Shown here: piece after piece, positions 25,782-38,166 of the stretch
How the letters are laid out: every line of letters starts with the position of its first letter
Position numbering within the stretch: position 1 is the stretch's first letter
Sequence record: OR594180
Length of the DNA: 45,233 nucleotides
Strand: one strand, 5' to 3'
Source: Escherichia phage vB_EcoM_SHAK7693
Notes under the pieces: model-generated
What the model was told of the DNA's origin: nothing
The model's input: the letters and a program-made list of their open reading frames with translations, nothing else
Databases searched by the model: none
Position numbers and translations under genes: made by a program

Positions 25782-27202
25782 TTCTTACCTCGTCTCTTCA
25801 TGTAATTAAGCAATTCTTCCTGGACCGATTTCTTCTCGTCGGTACGCGCGGCAACAACCTCATCCAGCGTGTCTCGGGCTATTATTTGATAAATGAATAC
25901 AGACCTTTTGTATCCAGATTGCATCTGCCTTACCGGACCTATGCGCTCGATAACCTGCAGATAATGTTCCAGGTTCCATCCCTGACTCATAAAAGCCATG
26001 TGGTGTCCGCCGTGTTGTAGCGACAGCCCGTGACCCGCAGAGGCCGGGTGTATTAGGAGCATAGGTATCTCGCCACGGTTCCACGCTTCCATCTGCTTAT
26101 TACCCTTAGCGCCTTTGGCAAACGCCTGGGCTTGAGGGAATCGCTTAAGGATACGTTCCAGTTCGTGCTTGAACTGATAGGCCACCAGTAACGGTGCCCC
26201 CTGTAACTCCTCAACAATGGACTCGAGCGCATCCAGTTTCGTATCGTGCACTTTCTCCCAGTCTTTGGTTGCTTCTCCGTCTGGCCCCGATACATATACA
26301 GCGCCGGATGCAATCTGTAGGCACTTCGACGTCTTCGCGGCAGCGTTAGCCGCTTCAACTTCTCCGCTCTCCAGTTCCGCGAATAACTTTTCCTCCATAT
26401 CGATGTACGCCTGACGCGCCTTCTTCGGCAGGTCAATTTCCACTGGCACGATAATCGGCGCTTCGCAACCAAACCACTCGGCGGCGTCAACCGTGAGACT
26501 AATGTCTTTCATCTTCTGATGAATCTCATTATCCGCACCCGGTCGTGCGTGATACTCCCGCGCCATCGCGGATTTCCCTTTCTGTACCGAGTTAAACCAG
26601 CGGTCTGTGAATGCCGTGTACGAAGAACCAAGGCGCTCGCCAGCGTCGATAAACCAGTTCTGCCCCCACAAGTCCTTGAGGCCGTTCGGCGACGGTGTGC
26701 CTGTCAGGTTAATGAAACGCTTAACCTTTCCGAACGCCACTTTGCTTAGCGCCTTAGCCCGTTTGCTTCCTCCAGAACGGCTACGGAAAGATTTCAGCTT
26801 CGTGCTCTCATCAGCAACGATAACCGTAAAAGGCCAGTCGTCTTTGCCGTAGTAGTCAATCAGCCACTCGATAACTTCGTAGTTTGTGCACACCACGTTA
26901 GCATCTGACTCCAGCGCCGCGATACGGCGCTTCTCTGAACCGGTTGCGTCTACGACACTCAGACAGGGGAAGTTCCAACGTGCCTGTTCCGCGGGCCACG
27001 TACCTGACGCAACACGTAAAGGAGCCAGAATTAACACTCGGTCGTCGTCATTAAGTTGCCCATTACGGAACAGCCGATTGAGAACCCACAACGTTGACCC
27101 CGACTTACCGCTGCCCATGCTCGCCCAGATATTGCAGCGATGGTGCCGCAGCATGAACGAAGTCATGAGCTTCTGGTATTCGCGCCTTTGAAACTTACTC
27201 AT
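25778..27202 (-). CDS. SNF2-family helicase
   Basis: Walker A GSGKS, DEST box, LTGTP, C-terminal helicase motif GHGLSLQ. Confidence 0.8.
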   Translation of the reverse strand: MSKFQRREYQKLMTSFMLRHHRCNIWASMGSGKSGSTLWVLNRLFRNGQLNDDDRVLILAPLRVASGTWPAEQARWNFPCLSVVDATGSEKRRIAALESDANVVCTNYEVIEWLIDYYGKDDWPFTVIVADESTKLKSFRSRSGGSKRAKALSKVAFGKVKRFINLTGTPSPNGLKDLWGQNWFIDAGERLGSSYTAFTDRWFNSVQKGKSAMAREYHARPGADNEIHQKMKDISLTVDAAEWFGCEAPIIVPVEIDLPKKARQAYIDMEEKLFAELESGEVEAANAAAKTSKCLQIASGAVYVSGPDGEATKDWEKVHDTKLDALESIVEELQGAPLLVAYQFKHELERILKRFPQAQAFAKGAKGNKQMEAWNRGEIPMLLIHPASAGHGLSLQHGGHHMAFMSQGWNLEHYLQVIERIGPVRQMQSGYKRSVFIYQIIARDTLDEVVAARTDEKKSVQEELLNYMKRRGKK

Positions 27203-28061
27203 TTACCGCCCCCATGAATGCCTTTATAAATTCAGCGGCTACTTGCGGGACGATGGCATTGCCATAACCGCGCAATCGTCCCACTCTGGCGGGTATCCCA
27301 TTAGCCAGCGGGAATGCGCCGGGTTCAACTGGCCTGAATTTTCCATCCCGGCATCCGAGCCAGTCAGTATCTGACCAGAAGCCGTGATGCGGATTGGTTG
27401 TGTTATTTTCAGACCCTGCTCCGTCGAGTAGTCCAGCCTGTCGAATGTTCTGTCTTTTCCGTCCTTGCGAATAACTGTCTCTCCGCTCCCTCTGTAATCG
27501 TTCGCTGTTGGGGTCGGCCATGCCAAAAGGTATTGTGCGTGCGTCGCCAGATTGCAATTCGCATTCGGTCTGTTGAAGCGTTTTTCCGCGTAGGCTTGTG
27601 GGTCTTTCGCTCTGCTGTTGTTGTCGTCCGCAACCGCTGGCGTCGGCCAGGTTGTGCGCGCCGAAGAACAGTCTGTCGCGTTTGTGCGGTGCGCCGACGC
27701 TACAAGCTGGGAGTACGGCAAACCCGACGGCGTAGTCTTCTCCTTCCAGGTGAGTTTGTAAATCGCACATCCACGATTTTGCAATTGCTGGCGCAACCTG
27801 CTCCCCAAAGAGGACTGGAGGTCGGCACTCGCTGATAAGGTCGAGGAACACAGGTGCGAGGTGTCTCTGGTCGAACTGTCCGAGTTGCTTTCCCGCCGCG
27901 CTAAACGGTTGGCAAGGCGGGCTTCCCGTCCAGAGAGGCGCATCTTCCGGAACTCCCGCAAGTCTGAGCGCGAGAGGCCAGCCGCCGATACCAGCGAAAA
28001 AAATGACACTGGGTGAACCCGTCAAGGTCTTCTGGCTTAACTTCGGTAATGCTTCTTTCAT
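27195..28061 (-). CDS. DNA (cytosine-5)-methyltransferase-like protein
   Basis: Motifs FAGIGG (I), PPCQPFS (IV), GEQV (VI), KRDRLFF (VIII), GNAIVP (X); motif I to IV spacing unusually short. Confidence 0.6.
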   Translation of the reverse strand: MKEALPKLSQKTLTGSPSVIFFAGIGGWPLALRLAGVPEDAPLWTGSPPCQPFSAAGKQLGQFDQRHLAPVFLDLISECRPPVLFGEQVAPAIAKSWMCDLQTHLEGEDYAVGFAVLPACSVGAPHKRDRLFFGAHNLADASGCGRQQQQSERPTSLRGKTLQQTECELQSGDARTIPFGMADPNSERLQRERRDSYSQGRKRQNIRQAGLLDGAGSENNTTNPHHGFWSDTDWLGCRDGKFRPVEPGAFPLANGIPARVGRLRGYGNAIVPQVAAEFIKAFMGAVNE

Positions 28062-28887: not shown

Positions 28888-29015
28888 TCCAGCACCCACA
28901 GATAAATTGCGACTAACATACCCAATACGGCGACCATCATGCCGTATTGACCCTCGTGGCAGTAGACACCGGCGGTGAATCCCGCCAGTACTGCGATAAT
29001 CAGTTTACTTAGCAT
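28884..29015 (-). CDS. small membrane protein (43 aa)
   Basis: Hand-translated; hydrophobic; starts inside polymerase 3' end. Confidence 0.3.
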   Translation of the reverse strand: MLSKLIIAVLAGFTAGVYCHEGQYGMMVAVLGMLVAIYLWVLE

Positions 29016-31206
29016 AGCGTTTTAACTCCTGCCCTTCCGCTACAAGAGGGAACCCCTCGGCCCACTCAGGCAGAGAACACATTAATTTTTCCAGTTCGGC
29101 CACCGTGTACTCAGGGGTATCTGGGGTTTCACATACCAGTTCATCGTGTACCGAAAGCACGATAGGATACCCGCCACGCTCAACGTTAATCATCGCATAT
29201 GCCAGTAAATCACGGCACAGCGCCTGGACAATGTTTTCACATGCTTTACCGCCGTGGGTGTATAGAGTTGTCCATTGGCGGGTTAACTGGTTTTCGCCCT
29301 GATACTTGATTCGGACATTCGTGTTTACCCGTCCATCTTCGTCTGTTTCCTTTGTCACACTAACGCCGATTCCCGGATACGAGAGGATACGGCCTGACGG
29401 CAACTCCATACACAACCACCAGCCAGGAACCTTCCTGCCCGACGAATCAAATTCTACGGTACGCCATATGCGGATAGCCCTTTCACCATTCCGGCGCAAG
29501 TGTGCCCCGGCCCAAAATTCACGACCAGGATTACGAACAGCGGCTAAAATTCCGTCTTTAAGGTCGCGCCAGAACGCTACTGTTTCCGGGTGTGACTCGC
29601 GCCACATACGCTTGATTGCATCACATGTGCGCCACACTTTCTTGTCCAGAATATATGATGGTCGGTCATCCTTTTCACCAGGATGCGGTGGTCGCTTGGC
29701 TTCCTGAATACGCGCCCACTCATACCCACGTGCGGTAGCAGCCCAGATGTGGTCGGGGAAAGTCCCGTCCATTGTTTTTGCCATCTCAATAAGGTCAAGA
29801 CCTAAGTTTTTAGCAAACGTAACGAACGCTCCGACGCCGCCCTCGTAGCCGAGACCCAGTTCGCATGCTTTGCCTATCTGTCTGATTTCCTTAAAGTTTT
29901 TCTTAATATCGTCGGGGTCCATGCCAAACATCTTACCTGCGGTTACACAGTAAATATCCAGTCCGGCACGGAACGTATCGAGCGCGGTTTCTTCTCCTGC
30001 TAACCACGCTAACCCACGACCTTCGACGTTAGAGTAATCAGCTACGACAAACTTGTGCCCGGCTTCCGGTATGATGCAGCTACGGACCGTCGATGCCGTC
30101 AGCTTGGCTACGTCAAATCGGCGGTGAGCACGACCCTTAAGTAACGCTGAAATGCCTTTATCCAGTTCATCATCGTGATAGTAACCGCGCGCCAGGTTCT
30201 GCGGCTGAAAGCCTTTACCCGCCCATCGCAGAGTGCGTTTTGCCCCGCCGTACTGCAAGCAACCACGACGGCGGTCGTCAGACGAGCGGCCCAACAGAAG
30301 CGGGTTATATTTCGTGGACGCTGTTGACGCGGCACCGAGGCGCATTTCGATAATCGTCCGGGCGTCGTCCGGTAAATCATCATCTGCCAACAGGTCGTTA
30401 AGCGTAGACTTCTGCGCGTTGTGAATACGGTGCGCAGGCGCAAGTTCACGCAGAATCGGCAGAAAGTCCTTACCCGTAAGCGAGCCTCCGTATTTGCGCT
30501 GGGCTTCTTCCTGTAACTGCGCTTTATGTTTCTCTACGGCATCAATAGCGGCTTCCGCCAGTGCGACGTCAACCTTAAACCCGCGGTCATTAATTAACTG
30601 GTCCAGTTCCAGTACGCGGTCCTCGAACTCGGAGTTACCCCAACGCGGCAGCTTATGGAAGACTTCACGCATCGCAGTGATGTCGCTCACGGCGTACTTG
30701 ATGAACAGCTCCCACTCATCAGGGTGTGTTTCGGCGGTGTAGCGTCTGATTTTGTAGTTCTTCGGCGTCGGCTTAGAGAAACGCTGAATCAGCGCCTTGC
30801 CGCGTTTATCTTTCGCATTGTCAGCGGACACGCCCAGCACTTCGCACAACGCATCAAGTGACCCCGGCAGCGCGTGACGAAACGCCCAAATCATTGTATC
30901 AATGGTGTTGCTTACGGGAATATCAAAACCCCAGCAGTTCTTCATGATGAGTCTGTCGAACATTGAGCCGTTGTGCCACACCATCTTAATACGACTGTTC
31001 GGCTTAACTAGGCGGCGTAACGCGCGATACAAATCTCCCGGCATGTCGCTGCCATCGGTGCAATCCCACACCTGTACAGGCTCGTCATCAAAAGCATAGG
31101 TACAGATAAGCACTTCGGTTGACGGGTGTTCGGCGTAAGCGTAGGACCCGACTTTCTTTAAATCGGCTTCGGAGAATGTTTCAAAGTCCAGGTATAAGTA
31201 GCTCAT
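29005..31206 (-). CDS. DNA polymerase I (family A) with 3'-5' exonuclease domain
   Basis: N-terminal LYLDFETFS exo motif; DYSNVEGR and RQIGKACELGLGYEGG palm motifs. Confidence 0.85.
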   Translation of the reverse strand: MSYLYLDFETFSEADLKKVGSYAYAEHPSTEVLICTYAFDDEPVQVWDCTDGSDMPGDLYRALRRLVKPNSRIKMVWHNGSMFDRLIMKNCWGFDIPVSNTIDTMIWAFRHALPGSLDALCEVLGVSADNAKDKRGKALIQRFSKPTPKNYKIRRYTAETHPDEWELFIKYAVSDITAMREVFHKLPRWGNSEFEDRVLELDQLINDRGFKVDVALAEAAIDAVEKHKAQLQEEAQRKYGGSLTGKDFLPILRELAPAHRIHNAQKSTLNDLLADDDLPDDARTIIEMRLGAASTASTKYNPLLLGRSSDDRRRGCLQYGGAKRTLRWAGKGFQPQNLARGYYHDDELDKGISALLKGRAHRRFDVAKLTASTVRSCIIPEAGHKFVVADYSNVEGRGLAWLAGEETALDTFRAGLDIYCVTAGKMFGMDPDDIKKNFKEIRQIGKACELGLGYEGGVGAFVTFAKNLGLDLIEMAKTMDGTFPDHIWAATARGYEWARIQEAKRPPHPGEKDDRPSYILDKKVWRTCDAIKRMWRESHPETVAFWRDLKDGILAAVRNPGREFWAGAHLRRNGERAIRIWRTVEFDSSGRKVPGWWLCMELPSGRILSYPGIGVSVTKETDEDGRVNTNVRIKYQGENQLTRQWTTLYTHGGKACENIVQALCRDLLAYAMINVERGGYPIVLSVHDELVCETPDTPEYTVAELEKLMCSLPEWAEGFPLVAEGQELKRYAK

Positions 31207-31416: not shown

Positions 31417-32046
31417 TTAACGGCGGCGACGTTCGCGGCGCGGTGCTTCATCTTCTTCGTCGTCTTCCAGGTCGTCAGTGCTCGCTACTACACTGGAGCC
31501 TCCGAAGCGTTTACCTTCACCCATATACTTGATGCCGAGGATGGTAGCGCACAGGTTTTTCCAATCTTTGTGCCACCATAATTCTACAGATACGTTTGCG
31601 ACACATCCGCTATATACCTGCTCGCCTTCGATTTCTTTCCCGTCGATGTTGAAATCAGGCTCGGTTTGTTTTTCACCTTTAGCCGATGTCATAATCACCG
31701 GTTGACGGTTGTTAGTGGCCCGGAAATACAGACCTTCTTCAAAATCCTCAATAGGATTGTCTCGCATTGCCAGGTCACGTACACAGCACTTGTCCGCGTG
31801 GTGGTCTACACCGTAGTTGGCCTTCATCCATTTCTCGGCAGCGGCGGCACCGATTGCATCTGTTACAACTTCCAGCGCGGTGTCATAAAGCGCGTCGATT
31901 TGAGGGTGGTCAGGCTGCATAAGAACCGTAACCTGGTATTTACCCTTAATCAGTTTACCGGTTTTCTTGTCCTCAGAGTCGGCAGCACGTTCGAATACGT
32001 TAACCCATGCAGTGTTTACTTTACGCAGATTCAGTTTAATACCCAT
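31417..32046 (-). CDS. putative ssDNA-binding protein (DUF2815-like)
   Basis: 209 aa with acidic C-terminal stretch DDLEDDEEDE; neighbours DUF2800-like nuclease and polymerase. Confidence 0.45.
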   Translation of the reverse strand: MGIKLNLRKVNTAWVNVFERAADSEDKKTGKLIKGKYQVTVLMQPDHPQIDALYDTALEVVTDAIGAAAAEKWMKANYGVDHHADKCCVRDLAMRDNPIEDFEEGLYFRATNNRQPVIMTSAKGEKQTEPDFNIDGKEIEGEQVYSGCVANVSVELWWHKDWKNLCATILGIKYMGEGKRFGGSSVVASTDDLEDDEEDEAPRRERRRR

Positions 32047-32099: not shown

Positions 32100-32128
32100 A
32101 CTATAATAGCTAACTATTCAGGTGTCAA
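32100..32128 (-). promoter_or_regulatory. class-B promoter (TTGACA-N17-TATAGT)
   Basis: Consensus -35; spacer TGAATAGTTAGCTAT. Confidence 0.45.
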
Positions 32129-32132
32129 CACT

Positions 32133-32624
32133 TTATTTGCCGTGATTTTCGTGGAAACCGTACTTAACCTCTGCGGCCTTTCGCGCTGCTATTGCGCCGT
32201 CGATAGTTTCAAAACGTCCGAGATGAATTAGTTTCTTCTCAACTTTTATCTCAGCTCGCCATTTGCCGCGGGTTTTATCGAAACTAACACCCGTCACCCC
32301 TGACGTGTTGTTGCGGGCTAAAGATAAATTACGGCTGTTCTCTTTTCGGGTTGTTTTCCTTAAATTAGAAAGAAGATTATTTTCCCGATTATGGTCAATA
32401 TGGTCTATCTCCTCTCCAGGTTGAAGTTTATTTTCAGGGTTCATCATATCCCATATAATTCTATGCGCCAGAAATGTCCTTCCACGTAAACGTACGCACA
32501 CATAGCCCCAATTACGGACAGACGCGACCTCGCTCCCAGCGGGTGCACGATTGCTGTTAGTTACGCGCCAATACAACTTACCGGTATTGGTATCATACCT
32601 AAAATAATCTTCCCATTTAATCAT
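32133..32624 (-). CDS. HNH homing endonuclease with AP2 domain
   Basis: DHIDHNRENN...ENSRN HNH motif; GVSFDKTRGKWRAEI...LGRFETIDGA AP2 domain. Confidence 0.8.
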   Translation of the reverse strand: MIKWEDYFRYDTNTGKLYWRVTNSNRAPAGSEVASVRNWGYVCVRLRGRTFLAHRIIWDMMNPENKLQPGEEIDHIDHNRENNLLSNLRKTTRKENSRNLSLARNNTSGVTGVSFDKTRGKWRAEIKVEKKLIHLGRFETIDGAIAARKAAEVKYGFHENHGK

Positions 32625-33862
32625 TCCAAATCCTCCTCTGTTACCCCCTTCCACTCAGGTCGTTTGTCGTCCGCCGTTGTAACGCATGGGGCTCCGGGCT
32701 TACGCGTGATGAAGTTTTTTAGTTCTTCTTCTGGGATAACTTTCAAGGCTGCTGTAGGGGTCATGATTGACTTAGTCATAACTTTATCACCAAATTTAGC
32801 AATAACGGCATCGGGGTCCGCCCAGGAGCGATTGCCATCCCGCCCTTCAACCAGTTTGTACCCCTGAACTTTCTTACCGGAATGCAATGCGGCGGACATC
32901 GCTTTTTCAACCTTGTCAATGTGCTGACGCAACAACGGCAACTTCTCATACTCAGCCACGAGTTGCTCAGGTGTCAGTTCCGGCAAAAAGTCGTCCTCCA
33001 GTTCTTCTGCCAGTACCGAATTAACAGTCTTCGTTCTGGCAGCGCACTGTTCAGAGAACCTGCACCACTGGCAACCATCAACCGACGGCTTAAAGTCTGA
33101 CGCTTTCAGGTTCTTCTTACCGCGGAAGTACGCATCGAGCGCTAACAGTGCGCGTTTCTGTGCGAACTTAGCGAACAGTTCCAGACCTTGAACAGAGATA
33201 TCCCACTCCGAAGCACCGCCAGCATACGGCTGGAAGATGACCAGACGAACAGTTGTTATGTTATAACGTCTCTTGAGTCGGCGATAAACACCGAGAGCGT
33301 AAAGCATAAGCTGCTTGTTTTCTTTCGCTTCGACACGATGCCGTCCGGTTTTCAGGTCGCCAATAATGAGCATGTGCTCGTCGGTGTTTGCCAGGTCCTG
33401 AACGGCAACGAGGTCGGCGGTCCCGAACGTCTCAACGCCTTCATATCCCGGATGCAGCACCTCGGTAAGATTTACGCGCATTTCCAGCTTGGCGTAAGTC
33501 GCTACATCGATAATAGCTTTGCAGTAGTCGGTGTACTTACGCACCTGCTCAATCATGTCCGCCGTAATAAGTACCGCACCTTTCACAGGGCTGATTAACG
33601 CCTTAATCTGGCCTTTGCCTTCATCCAGCACGTAAGCGCCAACTTCACGCTCTAACGGCAATGCAGTGCCACGGATATAGGCGTTTAGATGGACCTCTGC
33701 TATGGTGTGGCACGCGGTCCCTGTAACTGCGGCTTTACCCGACGTGTTAGGAATATCTTTTTCACAGGCTAGCGATGCAGCGCAGCTTAGCCACTTTTTA
33801 GCGCCCGACGGCGACAGTAAGGCGTGTACATCGTTATTGCCGCCGCGTTCTTTTAGGATCAT
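32621..33862 (-). CDS. PD-(D/E)XK nuclease, DUF2800/Cas4-like
   Basis: N-terminal LSPSGAKKWLSC hallmark; C-terminal Cys cluster CQWCRFSEQC; ATGA-coupled. Confidence 0.5.
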   Translation of the reverse strand: MILKERGGNNDVHALLSPSGAKKWLSCAASLACEKDIPNTSGKAAVTGTACHTIAEVHLNAYIRGTALPLEREVGAYVLDEGKGQIKALISPVKGAVLITADMIEQVRKYTDYCKAIIDVATYAKLEMRVNLTEVLHPGYEGVETFGTADLVAVQDLANTDEHMLIIGDLKTGRHRVEAKENKQLMLYALGVYRRLKRRYNITTVRLVIFQPYAGGASEWDISVQGLELFAKFAQKRALLALDAYFRGKKNLKASDFKPSVDGCQWCRFSEQCAARTKTVNSVLAEELEDDFLPELTPEQLVAEYEKLPLLRQHIDKVEKAMSAALHSGKKVQGYKLVEGRDGNRSWADPDAVIAKFGDKVMTKSIMTPTAALKVIPEEELKNFITRKPGAPCVTTADDKRPEWKGVTEEDLE

Positions 33863-34473: not shown

Positions 34474-34944
34474 TTATTCTTCTTCGAAATACTTGTTCTT
34501 GATTGCCGTCAGGCGTTCCAGATACTCCGCCAGGTCTTCGTCTTTAATCGCGGCAATCTTCATCTTCTTACCGGTGAACTCTTCCAGCAGTTCATCAGAA
34601 TCATCACACGCGGCATCGCTCGGACCTTCGTTAATTGCATCGTCGATAGCCTGAATCTGGTCGCGCAGAGACTGGTAATCGACTTCTTCTTTATCCTCTT
34701 CCGGTTCTGGCGTCGGTTCCTCTACTTTAGCTTTACGCGGCTTGCGTTTCGGCTTCTCTTCTTCTACCGGTTTAGTGTCAACTACGTCTTCACCTTCTAC
34801 CGGGATTTCTTTTGTTGCATCTTTTGCAACAGTAGGCTCGATTGTTGCGGTTTCAGCAACGACAACTTGTTTCGCGCTGTTAGCAGCAATCAGTTCGTGG
34901 GCAACTACGAAACGTTCTAGTAATACTAAGAATTTCTCTAACAT
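34474..34944 (-). CDS. acidic hypothetical protein (156 aa)
   Basis: Glu/Asp/Lys-rich; first gene after class-B promoter at 34976. Confidence 0.45.
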   Translation of the reverse strand: MLEKFLVLLERFVVAHELIAANSAKQVVVAETATIEPTVAKDATKEIPVEGEDVVDTKPVEEEKPKRKPRKAKVEEPTPEPEEDKEEVDYQSLRDQIQAIDDAINEGPSDAACDDSDELLEEFTGKKMKIAAIKDEDLAEYLERLTAIKNKYFEEE

Positions 34945-35068: not shown

Positions 35069-35284
35069 ATGCAACCATCTGAACTAGGCATCCGTGTAGA
35101 ACAACGCCGTAAAGAACTCGGCATCTCCCAACGTCGTCTGGCTGTTCTGACCGGCGTTTCCCAGGGCGCGATTAACCAGCTTGCACTCGGTGTAACCCAG
35201 GACGTCCGCCCGGCAACGCTGTTTAAACTGGCGGAAGTGCTGGAAGTAGACGCCAAGTGGCTGGCGTTAGGTGAAGGGGCTTAA
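35069..35284 (+). CDS. XRE-family HTH transcriptional regulator
   Basis: ISQRRLAVLTGVSQGAINQL helix-turn-helix; RBS AAGGAG. Confidence 0.7.
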   Translation: MQPSELGIRVEQRRKELGISQRRLAVLTGVSQGAINQLALGVTQDVRPATLFKLAEVLEVDAKWLALGEGA

Positions 35285-35300
35285 GCCCCTTTCTTTTTAT
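35268..35300 (+). terminator. rho-independent terminator
   Basis: GGGGCTTAAGCCCC palindrome then TTTCTTTTTATT. Confidence 0.5.
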
Positions 35301-35611
35301 TGCAACTTATCGAGTTCTTCCAAATTCTTAATCGTGTGTTGCACATTCAGGTACTGAATCCAGGCAAAAAGCCATACGCTCACCGGAAAACTAACCGCGG
35401 CAGCCGTTCTGAAAACAATGTGGGCGGTACACGCTACAATTTCCTTTAACGTCATATCCAGAACATGGCGCAATTCTGCAACTTCCTCTAACGCTAGCTT
35501 GCAAACAGGCCACCATTGGTGGGCTACACAAGAAACACATGTCAGGTATGTCGGGCGGTATCCGGCCCTAACTGCTTTAAACGGGTTATTTATAAAATCG
35601 TAAATATTCAT
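35297..35611 (-). CDS. hypothetical protein (104 aa)
   Basis: ATGA-coupled to primase/helicase gene. Confidence 0.45.
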   Translation of the reverse strand: MNIYDFINNPFKAVRAGYRPTYLTCVSCVAHQWWPVCKLALEEVAELRHVLDMTLKEIVACTAHIVFRTAAAVSFPVSVWLFAWIQYLNVQHTIKNLEELDKLQ

Positions 35612-37875
35612 TCCAAATCCTCCTCTGTCACTGTCAGCATTTCATTCGGTTCGTATATTGTCTTCGGAATCTTGTTATCCGTTATTCGGGTGTTCAACCT
35701 GTAACGGCCAGGTATTATCTGATTGTTTTCGTCGGTCCCTGGCACAAGATACCCCGCCTCAACCATTTTCTTAATCTTCCCGCGTTCTATAGCTTCTTTG
35801 GAGTTAAACGCCTTCGCGTTGGGGTCAGACTGTGCGAGCTTATTTGCCGCGGCTACTGTGATACCCTCGTTGCCGTTGTAGGTTCCTTCTGCCAGTTCAA
35901 ACGCCGCGAGTATCGTGGACTCGGAACTGTTGACGGCGTTCTCTACGGTTTTACGTACGTTTTGTTTACCTTCGTTAGTTAACCTTTCTTCCCGCTCTTT
36001 CTCCTCGTCAGTCTTGAACGGCTCGAAACCCCACGGCATCAGCACAAGCGCCTTGTGCGGCTCAGGAAGGTCGAGGTTTATGATTGTGCCGTATTCCTCT
36101 GTGCTACCGAGGAACTCAACCGCACGGTACTCTTTCGGCGGTGGTGCTTCACGGAACTGTACTGACTCAAGCACCATTCCAACCGTTTTCTGTTGGGGGC
36201 CGTGCTTAAATTTAGAGTGGTATACGTTTATCTGACGGTCGGTAGCGCGCTCAATTGTCAGTTCTACGTCAACACCGGCATACAGCGCCCCACTGCCACG
36301 GGCTTTCTTTCCACCCTTCGGCGTATGGTGGACAGCACCCACCGCGGCTTTAGTCGCGTCGCGTACTTCTTTCAGGATGGCGATAACTTTACCCATGCCG
36401 ATTGCCGTTGATGAACTGTTCTCGTCGAACTTATCAATCGTCAGGGCCAGCGTCTGGTTAAGGGTGTCGAACGCGACCATTCCGATAGGTTCACCCCCAG
36501 CAGTTTCGCGCATTAACTTAATCAGGTTTTTCAGTTTTCCGACTTCGCCCATGTCGATAACATGTACATAATCTTTACCTTCCGCGCCGTATTTAGCGGC
36601 TAGAGCATCAATACGTGTTCGCGTAGCTGCACCACCTTCACCATCAATATAGAAATGGTGGCAACGCTGGGTATCAGCCCCGGCAAACCGGTATCCGGCG
36701 GCGCTCAGGTACATCATCCCCAGCGTATAGAACGATTTATACGTACCGGACTCACCGACAATATCCCATATGCAATCCGACGGCATATAACCTTCAACGA
36801 CGAAATCAGCCTTTACCGGTTCCGGTAGCTCGTCCTCCTCTGAGCCATCATCGTCTTCCAGGTCGTCCAGGCTGCATGAAACAGATTCACGCGCACCCCA
36901 TCCGATAGCCTCGGCGACTTCACTGAACGGCAGCCCGGTCGCATCACACGCATACTTCCACACCTCTTTCGGCGACATGCCTTCGGTTGCCGTAATGTCA
37001 GTGTCGTGGATCATGGTTACGTTCGGCGCTTCGTAGCCCTCGCGCGGGAAGCACAGCAGGAAGTCGTCCGGCCGCGGCGTAGGGTCGCTGTAATTTTCTG
37101 CATGTTCCGGCGTAGCTGGCATCTTAAGGCCGCGGAGCGTCATAACACCGCCGTACTCAAACGCCAGCGCCTCAAACGCATCAGTAAACGCGGTACGCAG
37201 TTCTTCCGGTATCTGGTAATCCGATGCGCTGCTAACGTCAACGGCGGGGATACCTTCCAGTAACTCGTCCGGGTCAATCAGGTCGTTGCGGCGCGACCAG
37301 ATAACCGTAGAGCCAACCGGCGGCAGGTACATCGGTTGTGACAGAGTAAACCCGCTGCGGTCAGCGCCCATGCCTTTGAAGAAGTGCTCAAGCAAGCCAT
37401 GACGAACACGGATGATGTCACCACCCTCAACAGGACGGGCCATCGGCATGACGACGCGAAAGCGTGGTGACTCATCGGTATGGGATGCCGTGGTGTAGAG
37501 GCACATAGCCAGGCGGCTGCGCTTAACCAGGCGCACAGCTTCCTGATACTCTTCCGGTGTTGCGCTGTCGAAGTCCAGATAGGCGAGCGACGATTTGCTT
37601 ACAGACGCGTCGCAGCGATAGAAGAAGCCTTTACGCGCTTGCTTAAAGTCACCGGTTTCCGGGTCTTTTACGGCGCTGTGCGTAGAGTCGCACGCGGCAG
37701 TGATATAGCCAGGCGCGGTCTTCGGGTTAATTCCGTCACGAACAACATCGAGTGGCTGGATTAACTCTTTCAGGTCGTCCAGTGTTGCCGTGTGGGTGGT
37801 TCTGACGTTTATATCCTTTTTCTCTGCCCGCGCGTTGCGACGAGACCACGAGTAGGATAAAATTACATCGGACAT
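35608..37875 (-). CDS. putative primase/helicase (RecA-like ATPase)
   Basis: Walker A GESGTYKS in central domain; 755 aa; large N-terminal domain. Confidence 0.55.
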   Translation of the reverse strand: MSDVILSYSWSRRNARAEKKDINVRTTHTATLDDLKELIQPLDVVRDGINPKTAPGYITAACDSTHSAVKDPETGDFKQARKGFFYRCDASVSKSSLAYLDFDSATPEEYQEAVRLVKRSRLAMCLYTTASHTDESPRFRVVMPMARPVEGGDIIRVRHGLLEHFFKGMGADRSGFTLSQPMYLPPVGSTVIWSRRNDLIDPDELLEGIPAVDVSSASDYQIPEELRTAFTDAFEALAFEYGGVMTLRGLKMPATPEHAENYSDPTPRPDDFLLCFPREGYEAPNVTMIHDTDITATEGMSPKEVWKYACDATGLPFSEVAEAIGWGARESVSCSLDDLEDDDGSEEDELPEPVKADFVVEGYMPSDCIWDIVGESGTYKSFYTLGMMYLSAAGYRFAGADTQRCHHFYIDGEGGAATRTRIDALAAKYGAEGKDYVHVIDMGEVGKLKNLIKLMRETAGGEPIGMVAFDTLNQTLALTIDKFDENSSSTAIGMGKVIAILKEVRDATKAAVGAVHHTPKGGKKARGSGALYAGVDVELTIERATDRQINVYHSKFKHGPQQKTVGMVLESVQFREAPPPKEYRAVEFLGSTEEYGTIINLDLPEPHKALVLMPWGFEPFKTDEEKEREERLTNEGKQNVRKTVENAVNSSESTILAAFELAEGTYNGNEGITVAAANKLAQSDPNAKAFNSKEAIERGKIKKMVEAGYLVPGTDENNQIIPGRYRLNTRITDNKIPKTIYEPNEMLTVTEEDLE

Positions 37876-37932: not shown

Positions 37933-38166
37933 TTATTCCAGGTCTTCTAAAGTGGCGGCCATTCCGCGAACTTCAGCAACAGCGCTATATTTCCCACCAA
38001 CATTTTTCACGACACCGGATTTAACCAGTACCCTCAACGACCCTTCAATAATGGCTGAACTATAGTACTTAAAATAACTACGGCGCAAGTCCATAACGCT
38101 GCACGACCCTTTTTTGCGGGTTAACGAAACGACCGCCGTAAATACGCGTGACTGGAACTCGGTCAT
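37933..38166 (-). CDS. hypothetical protein (77 aa)
   Basis: ORF between regulator and primase/helicase. Confidence 0.45.
   Translation of the reverse strand: MTEFQSRVFTAVVSLTRKKGSCSVMDLRRSYFKYYSSAIIEGSLRVLVKSGVVKNVGGKYSAVAEVRGMAATLEDLE

Follow-up and report, generated by a model that had tools for sequence, protein, structure and literature searches.

Two replication genes of Escherichia phage vB_EcoM_SHAK7693 (record OR594180), coding for a DUF2800 nuclease and a helicase-primase, end in the same 21 bp, and comparison with related genomes suggests that the encoded peptide is the primary feature of these gene ends, the identity of the DNA being secondary. We show herein that the repeat is a by-product of a shared C-terminal hexapeptide and of the constraint imposed by an SD sequence and an ATGA overlap. 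The peptide itself is, in our judgment, probably a docking motif of the SSB-tail type that is shared by the replication machinery and represents a variant of the tails of T7 gp4 and gp2.5.

The motif and its bearers

The DNA analyzed (the window; 45,233 nucleotides) is from a Kagunavirus (Guernseyvirinae) phage with a replication module of the duf2800-gp2.5-polA type (Table 1). Its gene order, DUF2800 nuclease, DUF2815 SSB, and PolA, is that described for this module in the passages of PMC8093625 covered here, except that an HNH gene is inserted between the nuclease and the SSB; the same order was found in the distant contigs L094, L097, L098, and L100. A mirrored nuclease/SSB tail motif is unmentioned in those passages of PMC8093625, and a literature search returned no description of a DUF2800 tail motif or of Guernseyvirinae replisome contacts.

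Table 1. Features of the replication region, with positions in the window
Feature	Position	Strand	Remarks
Family A DNA polymerase with 3'-5' exonuclease domain	29005..31206	-	PF00476, E=1.9e-18; downstream
DUF2815/Enc34-type (T7 gp2.5-like) SSB	31417..32046	-	Pfam PF10991, E=2.1e-11; tail ...FGGSSVVASTDDLEDDEEDEAPRRERRRR
SSB motif copy	31462..31485	-	ASTDDLED, aa 188-195, start of tail
Promoter-like TTGACA-17-TATAGT	32100..32128	-	Upstream of SSB gene
HNH_3 + AP2 homing-endonuclease-like accessory gene	32133..32624	-	ATGA-overlaps nuclease gene
Junction 1	32621..32641	-	Nuclease codons T408-E413 + TGA; SD and ATGA start of HNH gene
DUF2800/PD-(D/E)XK nuclease, four conserved Cys	32621..33862	-	Pfam PF10926, E=3.7e-69; ends ...DDKRPEWKGVTEEDLE
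104-aa accessory gene, phrog_2638	35297..35611	-	Unknown function; ATGA-overlaps helicase-primase gene
Junction 2	35608..35628	-	Helicase-primase codons T750-E755 + TGA; SD and ATGA start of 104-aa gene
Helicase-primase, 755 aa, AAA_25, phrog_3228	35608..37875	-	Ends ...EPNEMLTVTEEDLE
Helicase interdomain-linker motif copy	36853..36876	-	CSLDDLED, aa 334-341
Helicase N-terminal motif-like stretch	37768..37788	-	ATLDDLK, aa 30-36
g77, 77 aa, phrog_5169	37933..38166	-	Unknown function; ends ...ATLEDLE

Within the window, the nuclease and the helicase both end in the motif [ST][DE][DEG]DL[E..], and further copies lie in g77, in the linker of the helicase, and where the SSB tail begins. Among 773 six-frame ORFs, the only ones that end in [DE]DL.{0,5} are g77, the helicase, and the nuclease, and the internal pattern is confined to these three proteins and the SSB; the family A polymerase contains no copy. 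All aligned full-length helicases carry the linker copy, C-[STDQ]x[DEA]DLx, even where the N-terminal domain has been replaced. ATLDDLK near the N-terminus of the helicase is kept within Kagunavirus only, and its place in the motif set is therefore doubtful.

The C-terminal motif is retained down to 43% identity in the nuclease and 26% in the helicase. Relatives write VSEEDLE as agt gaa gaa gat tta gaa TAA; in more remote relatives the ends are SDEDLS, ADADLSD, TDEDLSNE, or TDDDLKD, and the codons differ in each case. Because the peptide is kept while its codons change, it appears to be selected at the protein level. The anchor is a Leu, at position -2 here and at -1 to -7 in relatives.

The nuclease has a RecB/AddB/Dna2/Cas4-like fold and resembled the AdnAB/AddB/Dna2/MGME1/Cas4 nucleases in a fold search. 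Most of 150 DUF2800 representatives have an acidic tail end with a hydrophobic residue, and in a 40-sequence alignment of distant DUF2800 members one tail Phe is kept in 90% or more. Homologue searches with the nuclease and with g77 returned close relatives only. In Jersey-like relatives, g77 ends in ...ATPEDLE; it is missing or replaced in many others, the commonest replacement (96 aa) ending in ...CLAKR, without the motif. No Pfam family was found for g77, and the sole hint concerning it comes from the phiSD1 record, in a note on a structure alignment.

Foldseek matched the SSB to 4KLK, 5ODL, and 4JG2 (E=1e-6 to 1e-9); a phmmer search with it against the PDB gave no match, whereas a profile search did. 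In the SSB the motif is not C-terminal: the tail reads ASTDDLEDDEEDE..., and the motif is followed there by an acidic run and a polybasic end, APRRERRRR. All Guernseyvirinae-type SSBs contain AS[TV][DN]DLEDD, which aligns with the AS.DDF[DE] of PDB entries 4KLK and 4JG2 and of distant DUF2815 SSBs; Enc34 ORF6 has TSDAYDE at the aligned position. Acidic tails are common among DNA-binding proteins in general, which, like the internal position of the SSB copy and the loss or replacement of g77 in many relatives, weighs against a shared docking motif.

Proposed docking and its alternatives

In T7, the acidic tails of gp4 and gp2.5 have sites in common on the T7 DNA polymerase and in the DNA-binding cleft of gp2.5; on the polymerase they attach to basic patches and can replace one another, with a C-terminal Phe as the essential anchor. 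The helicase-primase (...VTEEDLE) and the SSB of the present phage both carry an acidic C-terminal tail as well, short and with a hydrophobic anchor, and here too the neighboring family A polymerase gene is without such a tail. The SSB belongs to the same structural class as gp2.5 (the T7-type/DUF2815 fold; PMC5686142). There are also differences from T7. A C-terminal Phe anchor was not found in these proteins, the anchor being a Leu followed by Glu (or by up to about five more residues); distant DUF2800/DUF2815 lineages do use Phe, but away from the terminus. The motif is also carried by a PD-(D/E)XK nuclease, a 77-aa protein, and a helicase linker; in the SSB it lies inside the tail, ahead of the polybasic end; and the nuclease tail comes out as ordered in the prediction.

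Crystals of Enc34 ORF6, 4JG2, 4KLK, and T7 gp2.5 hold the acidic tail in the concave sheet of a neighboring molecule (PMC5686142). A DTDF peptide that mimics the T7 gp4 tail is contained in the polymerase structure 6P7E, and the front basic patch of the polymerase anchors the gp2.5 tail (PMC12339929). The motif [VA][ST][DE][DEG]-D-L-[E/S/K...], here TEEDLE, is similar to the proximal segment of the SSB tail in this phage (ASTDDLED) and is displayed at the C-termini of the nuclease, the helicase-primase, and g77 and in the helicase linker. By analogy with T7, these copies probably let their bearers bind, or compete for, one common replication/recombination docking surface. Candidate receptors would be the concave OB-fold groove of the SSB, a pocket of the nuclease, perhaps filled by the nuclease's own tail in cis, and the family A polymerase, the last suggested only by its likeness to T7 gp5. 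A shared, T7-like interaction motif had been proposed in the original prediction for the three C-termini; the comparative evidence favors it and points to a wider distribution, which takes in the linker, the SSB, other genomes, and tails that appear to covary.

This covariation was seen in distant duf2800-gp2.5-polA modules, where the nuclease tail appears to mirror the SSB tail of its own genome and the two seem to change together. Nuclease and SSB tails read, respectively, SDDFEDIA and SDDFDVIA in L092, DEFEDL..DDLI and DDFEEF..DDLM in L091, DDDLND and DDDLAD in L097, VDDLGFD and KDDLGMD in L098, and KDDLSLD and KDDLGFD in L100; some tails of nuclease and SSB alike are bipartite, with ..DL[VI] as a second end. 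In permutation tests, tails from the same genome were more similar for the nuclease-SSB pair (p=0.007, 11 lineages) and for the nuclease-helicase pair (p=1e-4, 9 lineages); helicase-SSB similarity was not higher within than between genomes (p=0.30). For nuclease and SSB the effect is of modest size (mean score 21.5 vs 18.7; p=0.05 for the L-type lineages alone), and the L-type lineages form one clade, so that the switch from F to L may be a single event. Several contigs were too short to contain the SSB gene.

A different explanation of these tails is that each protein's acidic, DNA-mimicking end covers its own DNA-binding surface and has no partner in common with the others; folding back would then serve autoinhibition or substrate selection, and the likeness among tails would reflect a common physico-chemical requirement. 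The AF2 model of the nuclease is in keeping with this. Its mean pLDDT is 93.6, and the tail (93 for residues 401-410 and 89 for 411-413) is set on the nuclease itself and not left free, which suggests that, instead of docking freely, it may be packed or act in cis. What speaks for a shared motif is the one-turn helix that is predicted alike for EEDL (nuclease residues 409-412) and for TDDL (SSB residues 190-193); the pLDDT of the SSB tail is 51-66. To judge by the title of a 2008 paper from Marintcheva and colleagues, the tail reportedly competes with ssDNA for the same surface, which would also suit action in cis. In addition, the T7 gp2.5 tail fills its own groove in an AlphaFold2 model (PMC12339929), and the DNA specificity of Enc34 ORF6 alters once its tail is removed (PMC5686142). 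Against this stands the nature of the likeness, which is specific in sequence and lineage and not in composition alone (DDLGFD/DDLGMD, DDFEDIA/DDFDVIA, and the bipartite tails), together with the excess similarity within genomes for nuclease-SSB and nuclease-helicase. Moreover, the folds of the bearers are unrelated, and independent sites in cis are hence not expected to select the same peptide. We therefore consider it unlikely that cis action accounts for the tails.

Still less probable, in our view, is recruitment of a host factor, in which all bearers would dock on one E. coli protein, such as a client of the SSB tail or a chaperone. The motif is of the bacterial SSB-tail type, with an acidic run and a hydrophobic anchor. 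The E. coli SSB has the C-terminus DDDIPF, a flexible tail end that contacts genome-maintenance enzymes, and the Prim-Pol/DUF5906 helicase of the distant L092 module ends in ...DLDIPF. However, TEEDLE does not end in an aromatic residue, as the tails of bacterial SSBs do, and the motif covaries with the SSB tail of the same phage in phages of very diverse origin, contrary to what a host receptor predicts. The present tails also differ from the bacterial tip in sequence, having no Pro-Phe terminus, and in their bearers: in bacteria the SSB bears the tail and nucleases and helicases are the receptors, whereas here a nuclease and a helicase bear SSB-like tails.

The docking reading can be carried further, to a set of propositions that, taken jointly, we regard as doubtful. 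In duf2800-gp2.5-polA modules at large, all enzymes that produce or process ssDNA, among them the nuclease, various unrelated helicase-primases, and small initiator-like proteins, would carry lineage-specific copies of the SSB tail, and these copies would evolve in step with the SSB and amount to a private code. In the pocket meant for the SSB tail, the tail of the nuclease itself would act as a pseudo-ligand; on meeting DNA coated with SSB, the nuclease would be switched on or the ssDNA would be passed on.

The repeated junction and its accessory genes

A search of the whole window found TCATTCCAAATCCTCCTCTGT in two exact copies and, with up to three mismatches tolerated, nowhere else in it. 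The chance expectation for this 21-mer is 0.00, and two matches were reached in none of 100 dinucleotide-preserving shuffles. Read on the minus strand, each copy is ACA GAG GAG GAT TTG GAA TGA (T-E-E-D-L-E-stop), and the repeat grows to 24 nt if one synonymous mismatch is counted (GTA/GTG, Val). In both, the final A of GAA and the TG of the stop form an ATG that opens the next ORF, with GGAGG 7 nt 5' of it. The original prediction of one 21-bp junction used twice, encoding the last residues and stop codon of the nuclease and of the primase/helicase, is confirmed by these readings, as is its mention of a third gene that ends in ...TLEDLE.

Both of the genes opened in this way are accessory, being missing or exchanged for others in most relatives; among the sampled genomes, the HNH gene stands at the nuclease junction only in this phage and in phage Ivi. 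Wherever an accessory gene lies directly behind the stop, Glu-Glu is written GAG-GAG, the last Glu GAA, and the stop TGA. For the nuclease gene, GAGGAGG with a TGA stop was found in 25 of 25 contexts with an overlapping downstream ORF and in 0 of 25 without one (Fisher 1.6e-14, phylogeny not corrected for), in agreement with the earlier suggestion that the tail codons double as a ribosome-binding site and an ATGA start. Relatives without the downstream gene have the codons agtgaagaagat...TAA and no SD. Both accessory genes are thus predicted to be translationally coupled to the genes upstream through the ATGA overlap. A need for the SD as the primary cause of the peptide was rejected, since relatives without a downstream gene keep the peptide. 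In relatives without the accessory gene, a sequence closely similar to the promoter-like element of Table 1 lies directly 3' of the nuclease stop.

The same 21 bases stand at two gene ends because both proteins carry ...TEEDLE and its codons serve as a ribosome-binding site: with GAG-GAG, GAA, and TGA fixed, only the Thr, Asp, and Leu codons are free, and identity of the junctions is unsurprising. As in other ATGA-coupled gene pairs, the ATG overlaps the stop and GGAGG is placed 7 nt before it within the last codons of the upstream gene. What differs is that the Glu-Glu codons of a conserved peptide spell out the SD, so that the same solution arose at two genes; the mechanism is otherwise ordinary.

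The repeat had also been thought a possible recombination seam, and the two junctions might stay identical as microhomology for moving accessory cassettes or through concerted evolution. Both are indeed hot spots, with many different accessory genes beginning exactly at the stop codon, and one of them holds an HNH homing-endonuclease-like gene. Yet when ORFs beginning at or near the nuclease and helicase stops were clustered (about 90 loci), none of the 15 clusters, 10 after the nuclease (2 single-locus) and 5 after the helicase (3 single-locus), was common to both junctions, and cassette exchange between them was accordingly rejected. What relatives share of the junction is the peptide, kept in other codons, and not the exact 21-mer. 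Of the 43 genomes, three have the latter at both sites, where independent alleles would give 1.5 (p=0.16), and the double match is thus about as frequent as such alleles predict. Most relatives have at least one synonymous difference between their own two junctions, and the remaining motif copies are all written in different codons; gene conversion that keeps the copies identical is thus unsupported by codon comparison and allele frequencies. Reciprocal recombination between these direct repeats would, moreover, remove 3 kb with the nuclease gene and five other ORFs. A seam is therefore very improbable, and of the original interpretation the double use of the tail codons and, on comparative evidence, the shared motif remain. 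That two unrelated genes end alike by coincidence, with the likeness of g77 and the SSB a low-complexity artifact, is scarcely credible even for a short motif of common acidic residues, given that no match is expected by chance at the DNA level, that the motif is restricted to replication proteins among the 773 ORFs, and that it is kept with synonymous variation in relatives down to 26-43% identity.

Meaning for phage replication

The DNA repeat in itself is ordinary. The conserved peptide, on the other hand, appears to have been co-opted at the DNA level, its Glu-Glu codons forming a ready-made ribosome-binding site, and this may explain why accessory genes gather behind these two genes. If the more elaborate reading of the tails as a private code held, the replisome of the phage would be insulated from the clients of the host SSB and from co-infecting phages.

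The Guernseyvirinae, a large group, infect Salmonella and E. coli and find use in biocontrol. A shared docking peptide, if real, would provide a simple wiring diagram for their replication and recombination machinery. This diagram would hold equally for the widespread duf2800-gp2.5-polA module, for which we found no description of the protein contacts. The principle known from T7, in which the tails of a helicase and an SSB compete for one site, would then also cover a RecB-type nuclease and an internal linker.

Dual coding and probable translational coupling at the repeated junction

The sequence TCATTCCAAATCCTCCTCTGT occurs in two exact copies in the window, and no further site was found there with up to three mismatches allowed, shuffled sequences giving an expectation of none. 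On the minus strand, both copies read ACA GAG GAG GAT TTG GAA TGA, and a Val codon (GTA vs GTG) precedes each, so that the nuclease and the helicase-primase both end in VTEEDLE. At both copies, the start ATG of the next ORF is composed of the last A of GAA and the TG of the stop codon, with GGAGG 7 nt before it. The repeat, its coding, the coupled starts and a third gene ending in EDLE (g77) had all been described in the original prediction, and this description proved accurate.

Features of the replication region
Feature	Position	Strand	Remarks
Two long overlapping ORFs	27195-28061	-	288 aa and 256 aa, different frames
Polymerase	29005-31206	-	family A
SSB	31417-32046	-	DUF2815, T7 gp2.5-like
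SSB residues 196-209	31417-31461	-	acidic run, then APRRERRRR at tail end
SSB motif copy	31462-31485 (bases shared with linker copy 31462-31476)	-	ASTDDLED, aa 188-195; directly after OB fold, start of tail
Promoter-like TTGACA-17-TATAGT	32128-32100	-	just after HNH gene
HNH_3/AP2 homing-endonuclease-like gene	32133-32624	-	next ORF after nuclease
21-bp repeat, first copy	32621-32641		nuclease end
Nuclease	32621-33862	-	413 aa, DUF2800/PD-(D/E)XK; ends VTEEDLE
g156	34474-34944	-	phrog_3127
Promoter-like site of g156	35004-34976		strong
HTH gene	35069-35284	+
Hairpin	35273-35292		GC-rich, T-runs on both sides
104-aa protein, function unknown	35297-35611	-	next ORF after helicase
21-bp repeat, second copy	35608-35628		helicase end
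Helicase-primase	35608-37875	-	755 aa, AAA_25, phrog_3228; ends VTEEDLE
Helicase linker copy	36853-36876 (bases shared with SSB copy 36853-36867)	-	CSLDDLED, aa 334-341
g77	37933-38166	-	77 aa; ends ATLEDLE

The codons of the motif also serve as a translation start region, as had been claimed: GGAGG or GAGGA was present in the nuclease tail in 25/25 contexts with an overlapping downstream ORF vs 0/25 without one (Fisher 1.6e-14, for unique sequence contexts, shared ancestry not being corrected for). Ten different, unrelated clusters of accessory ORFs follow the nuclease, nearly all starting at an ATGA overlap, a few at -1 and one cluster at -8; several resemble small membrane proteins by eye, with a hydrophobic N-terminal stretch. 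Five clusters follow the helicase, one being a doubtful 37-aa ORF that starts 20 nt past the stop. Across loci L001-L090, accessory starts at both stops are nearly all ATGA overlaps. The HNH_3 + AP2 gene (2630-3121 in L001) separates the nuclease stop from the SSB promoter. Of ~50 related contexts, it was found at this site in just two, the window and phage Ivi; the other genomes carry one of nine further small genes, or nothing. In relatives lacking an accessory gene, the promoter-like TTGACA-17-TATAGT immediately follows the nuclease stop. Each junction is a slot for accessory-gene exchange.

The repeat had also been proposed as a recombination seam, but no accessory cluster common to both junctions was found, and this idea is therefore unsupported. 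Given the peptide, most bases are fixed by GAG-GAG (Shine-Dalgarno), GAA (ATG formation) and TGA (overlap), and the codons for Thr, Asp and Leu alone remain free. Among 43 Kagunavirus-like genomes, the exact 21-mer occurs at the nuclease end in 6, at the helicase end in 11 and at both in 3, vs 1.5 expected from independent alleles (p=0.16); in IMG/VR it occurs in 12 contigs, just one of which has two copies. The DNA repeat is by itself ordinary, a case of dual coding and translational coupling, and very probably a by-product of the shared peptide and the coupling constraints.

Conservation of the peptide and its further copies

The region shares ~92% identity with Escherichia phage Ivi and 88-91% with many Kagunavirus (Guernseyvirinae) phages. 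The minus-strand operon runs from g77 through the helicase-primase, the 104-aa gene, the plus-strand HTH gene, g156, NinX, g90, the nuclease, HNH and the DUF2815 SSB to the family A polymerase, an arrangement corresponding to the duf2800-gp2.5-polA module noted in PMC8093625. The hairpin between the HTH and 104-aa genes has the appearance of a bidirectional terminator; where relatives lack an accessory gene, it lies directly 3' of the helicase stop. The two same-strand ORFs at 27195-28061 possibly represent a frameshift or split gene, the first containing a PCQPFS stretch that by eye resembles a cytosine-C5 methyltransferase motif.

Related phages (3 from GenBank, and 75 IMG/VR loci surrounding homologues of the nuclease) were compared for the same junction. 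Nuclease and helicase keep the same type of ending across all loci with varying codons, and similar endings reach down to 43% identity in the nuclease series and 26% in the helicase. In phage phiSD1, where no gene lies behind either stop, the nuclease ends VSEEDLE (gtt agt gaa gaa gat tta gaa TAA) and the helicase VTEEDLE, then TAG. As the different copies of the motif use differing codons, their resemblance is maintained at the protein level and not by recent gene conversion. The conserved entity is the peptide, not the DNA, and the claim of a shared motif holds.

Tails of module proteins in related phages and loci
Group	Nuclease	Helicase	g77	SSB
Kagunavirus	V[TS]EEDLE	VTEEDLE	ATLEDLE
Jersey-like	VTEDDLEA or VTEEDL	TTEGDLE	ATPEDLE
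L065	ADADLSD	DDDLSD	-
L067-73	SDEDLS	SDEDLNS	-
L074-87	TDEDLSNE	TDDDLKD	-
L091	DEFEDLDDLI			DDFEEF..DDLM
L092	SDDFEDIA			SDDFDVIA
L094	TDDFEDMT			DSDFDDLG
L095	ADDFDNLF			EDEFDSED
L097	SDDDLND			DDDDLAD
L098	VDDLGFD			KDDLGMD
L100	KDDLSLD			KDDLGFD

Among the window's six-frame ORFs of 30 aa or more (773 in all), C-terminal [DE]DL plus 0-5 residues occurred in only three (g77, helicase and nuclease), and internal [ST]x[DEGN]DL[EDSNKG] only in the helicase (three times), SSB, nuclease and g77. The motif is conserved and module-specific, lies on four replication proteins and resembles the SSB tail. All full-length helicases that could be aligned have the linker copy (variants C-TLEDLED, C-DEEDLAD, C-QDEDLMD, C-TDEDLDD and C-TDADLDN), even where the N-terminal domain is replaced, and the SSB copy is AS[TV][DN]DLEDD in all Guernseyvirinae-type SSBs. 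The helicase N-terminal ATLDDLK, conserved only within Kagunavirus, was left out.

Linker and SSB copies share 15 identical bases, GAC GAC CTG GAA GAC (DDLED), probably through codon bias. Helicases of L017, L032, L040, L042, L043 and L047 have a different N-terminal (primase-side) domain and align locally with the window protein at only 32-33% identity at best. They retain both the motif in the linker and the ...VTEEDLE terminus, which points to shuffling of domains around a linker that stays fixed. A 60-aa accessory protein overlapping the nuclease stop in L020 ends ...CKKEDLE, and a 91-aa protein at the g77 position upstream of the helicase in L024 and L034 ends ...NIS[RH]DLE; the commoner g77 replacement (96 aa, as in Ivi) ends ...CLAKR, without the motif. 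The very acidic g156, annotated in relatives as '13.88 kDa late protein', holds KDEDLAEYLE, a motif-like stretch without Ser/Thr.

Paired tails in the wider DUF2800/DUF2815 family

Most of 150 DUF2800 representatives (29-58% identity) have an acidic C-terminal tail that includes a hydrophobic anchor. The ..DL.. tail (L-type) characterizes relatives of at least 43% identity and several at 36-42%; more distant tails read ..DDFxD[LIV].. (F-type), in many cases with another ..DL[VI] at the C-terminus itself, and one tail Phe is conserved in at least 90% of a 40-sequence alignment of distant members. DUF2815 SSBs have the same two types directly after a conserved FGG (AS.DDFDDLG....DDLV vs AT.DDLGDDDD...), the crystallised proteins showing AESDFGD (4KLK), AADDFTTIEDDD (4JG2) and TSDAYDEDED (Enc34 ORF6) at this position. 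SSB tails of relatives contain 2-3 alternating acidic/basic blocks, e.g. DEDEEDEKPRRRRSRDEDDEDEEEERPRRRRR, and F-type SSBs have another acidic motif, ..DDLV, as their C-terminus instead of a basic stretch.

Where one contig carries both genes, the tail of its nuclease mirrors that of its SSB. With one representative per lineage, lineages not being fully independent, permutation gave same-genome vs other-genome similarities of 21.5 vs 18.7 for nuclease-SSB (p=0.007, n=11) and 20.0 vs 14.9 for nuclease-helicase (p=1e-4, n=9), and no same-genome excess for helicase-SSB (p=0.30); for nuclease-SSB within the L-type clade alone, p was 0.05. This similarity provides moderate support.

The bacterial SSB C-terminal tip is DDDIPF. 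A Prim-Pol/DUF5906 helicase in a distant module (L092, 60-2546, minus strand) ends ...SNQDLDIPF, resembling that tip; unrelated helicases end ...REDLS (L094), ...PDFDLV (L095) and ...ESLDFE (L098).

Candidate receptors and a possible docking function

The motif-bearing proteins may use it to dock at, or compete for, a single common site. One candidate receptor would be the SSB groove. The SSB model (AlphaFold2, confident, mean pLDDT 89.6) matches DUF2815 structures 4KLK, 5ODL and 4JG2; crystals of Enc34 ORF6, 4JG2, 4KLK and T7 gp2.5 show the acidic tail in a neighbouring molecule's concave sheet, and tail removal in Enc34 altered DNA specificity (PMC5686142). Another candidate would be the polymerase, the constant module member without the motif; in T7, the tails of gp4 and gp2.5 have both been located to the front basic patch of the polymerase (PMC12339929). 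A third could be the nuclease itself, whose likewise confident AlphaFold2 model (mean pLDDT 93.6) resembles AdnAB/AddB/Dna2/MGME1/Exo5/Cas4 nuclease domains. Its own tail is predicted as a docked one-turn helix (pLDDT ~89-93), which would fit a cis pseudo-ligand, and the same helix is predicted at lower confidence (pLDDT 61-66) for the SSB tail TDDL.

A search of an incomplete body of literature turned up neither a tail motif described for DUF2800 proteins nor replisome contacts described for Guernseyvirinae. The closest known system is the paired acidic tails of T7 gp4 and gp2.5. Unlike in T7, the anchor here is a Leu and is not terminal, copies also occur on a RecB-type nuclease and a small protein and internally in the helicase linker, the end of the SSB tail is basic, and the nuclease tail is predicted to be ordered. 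On balance, we lean slightly towards the peptide being a shared docking motif.
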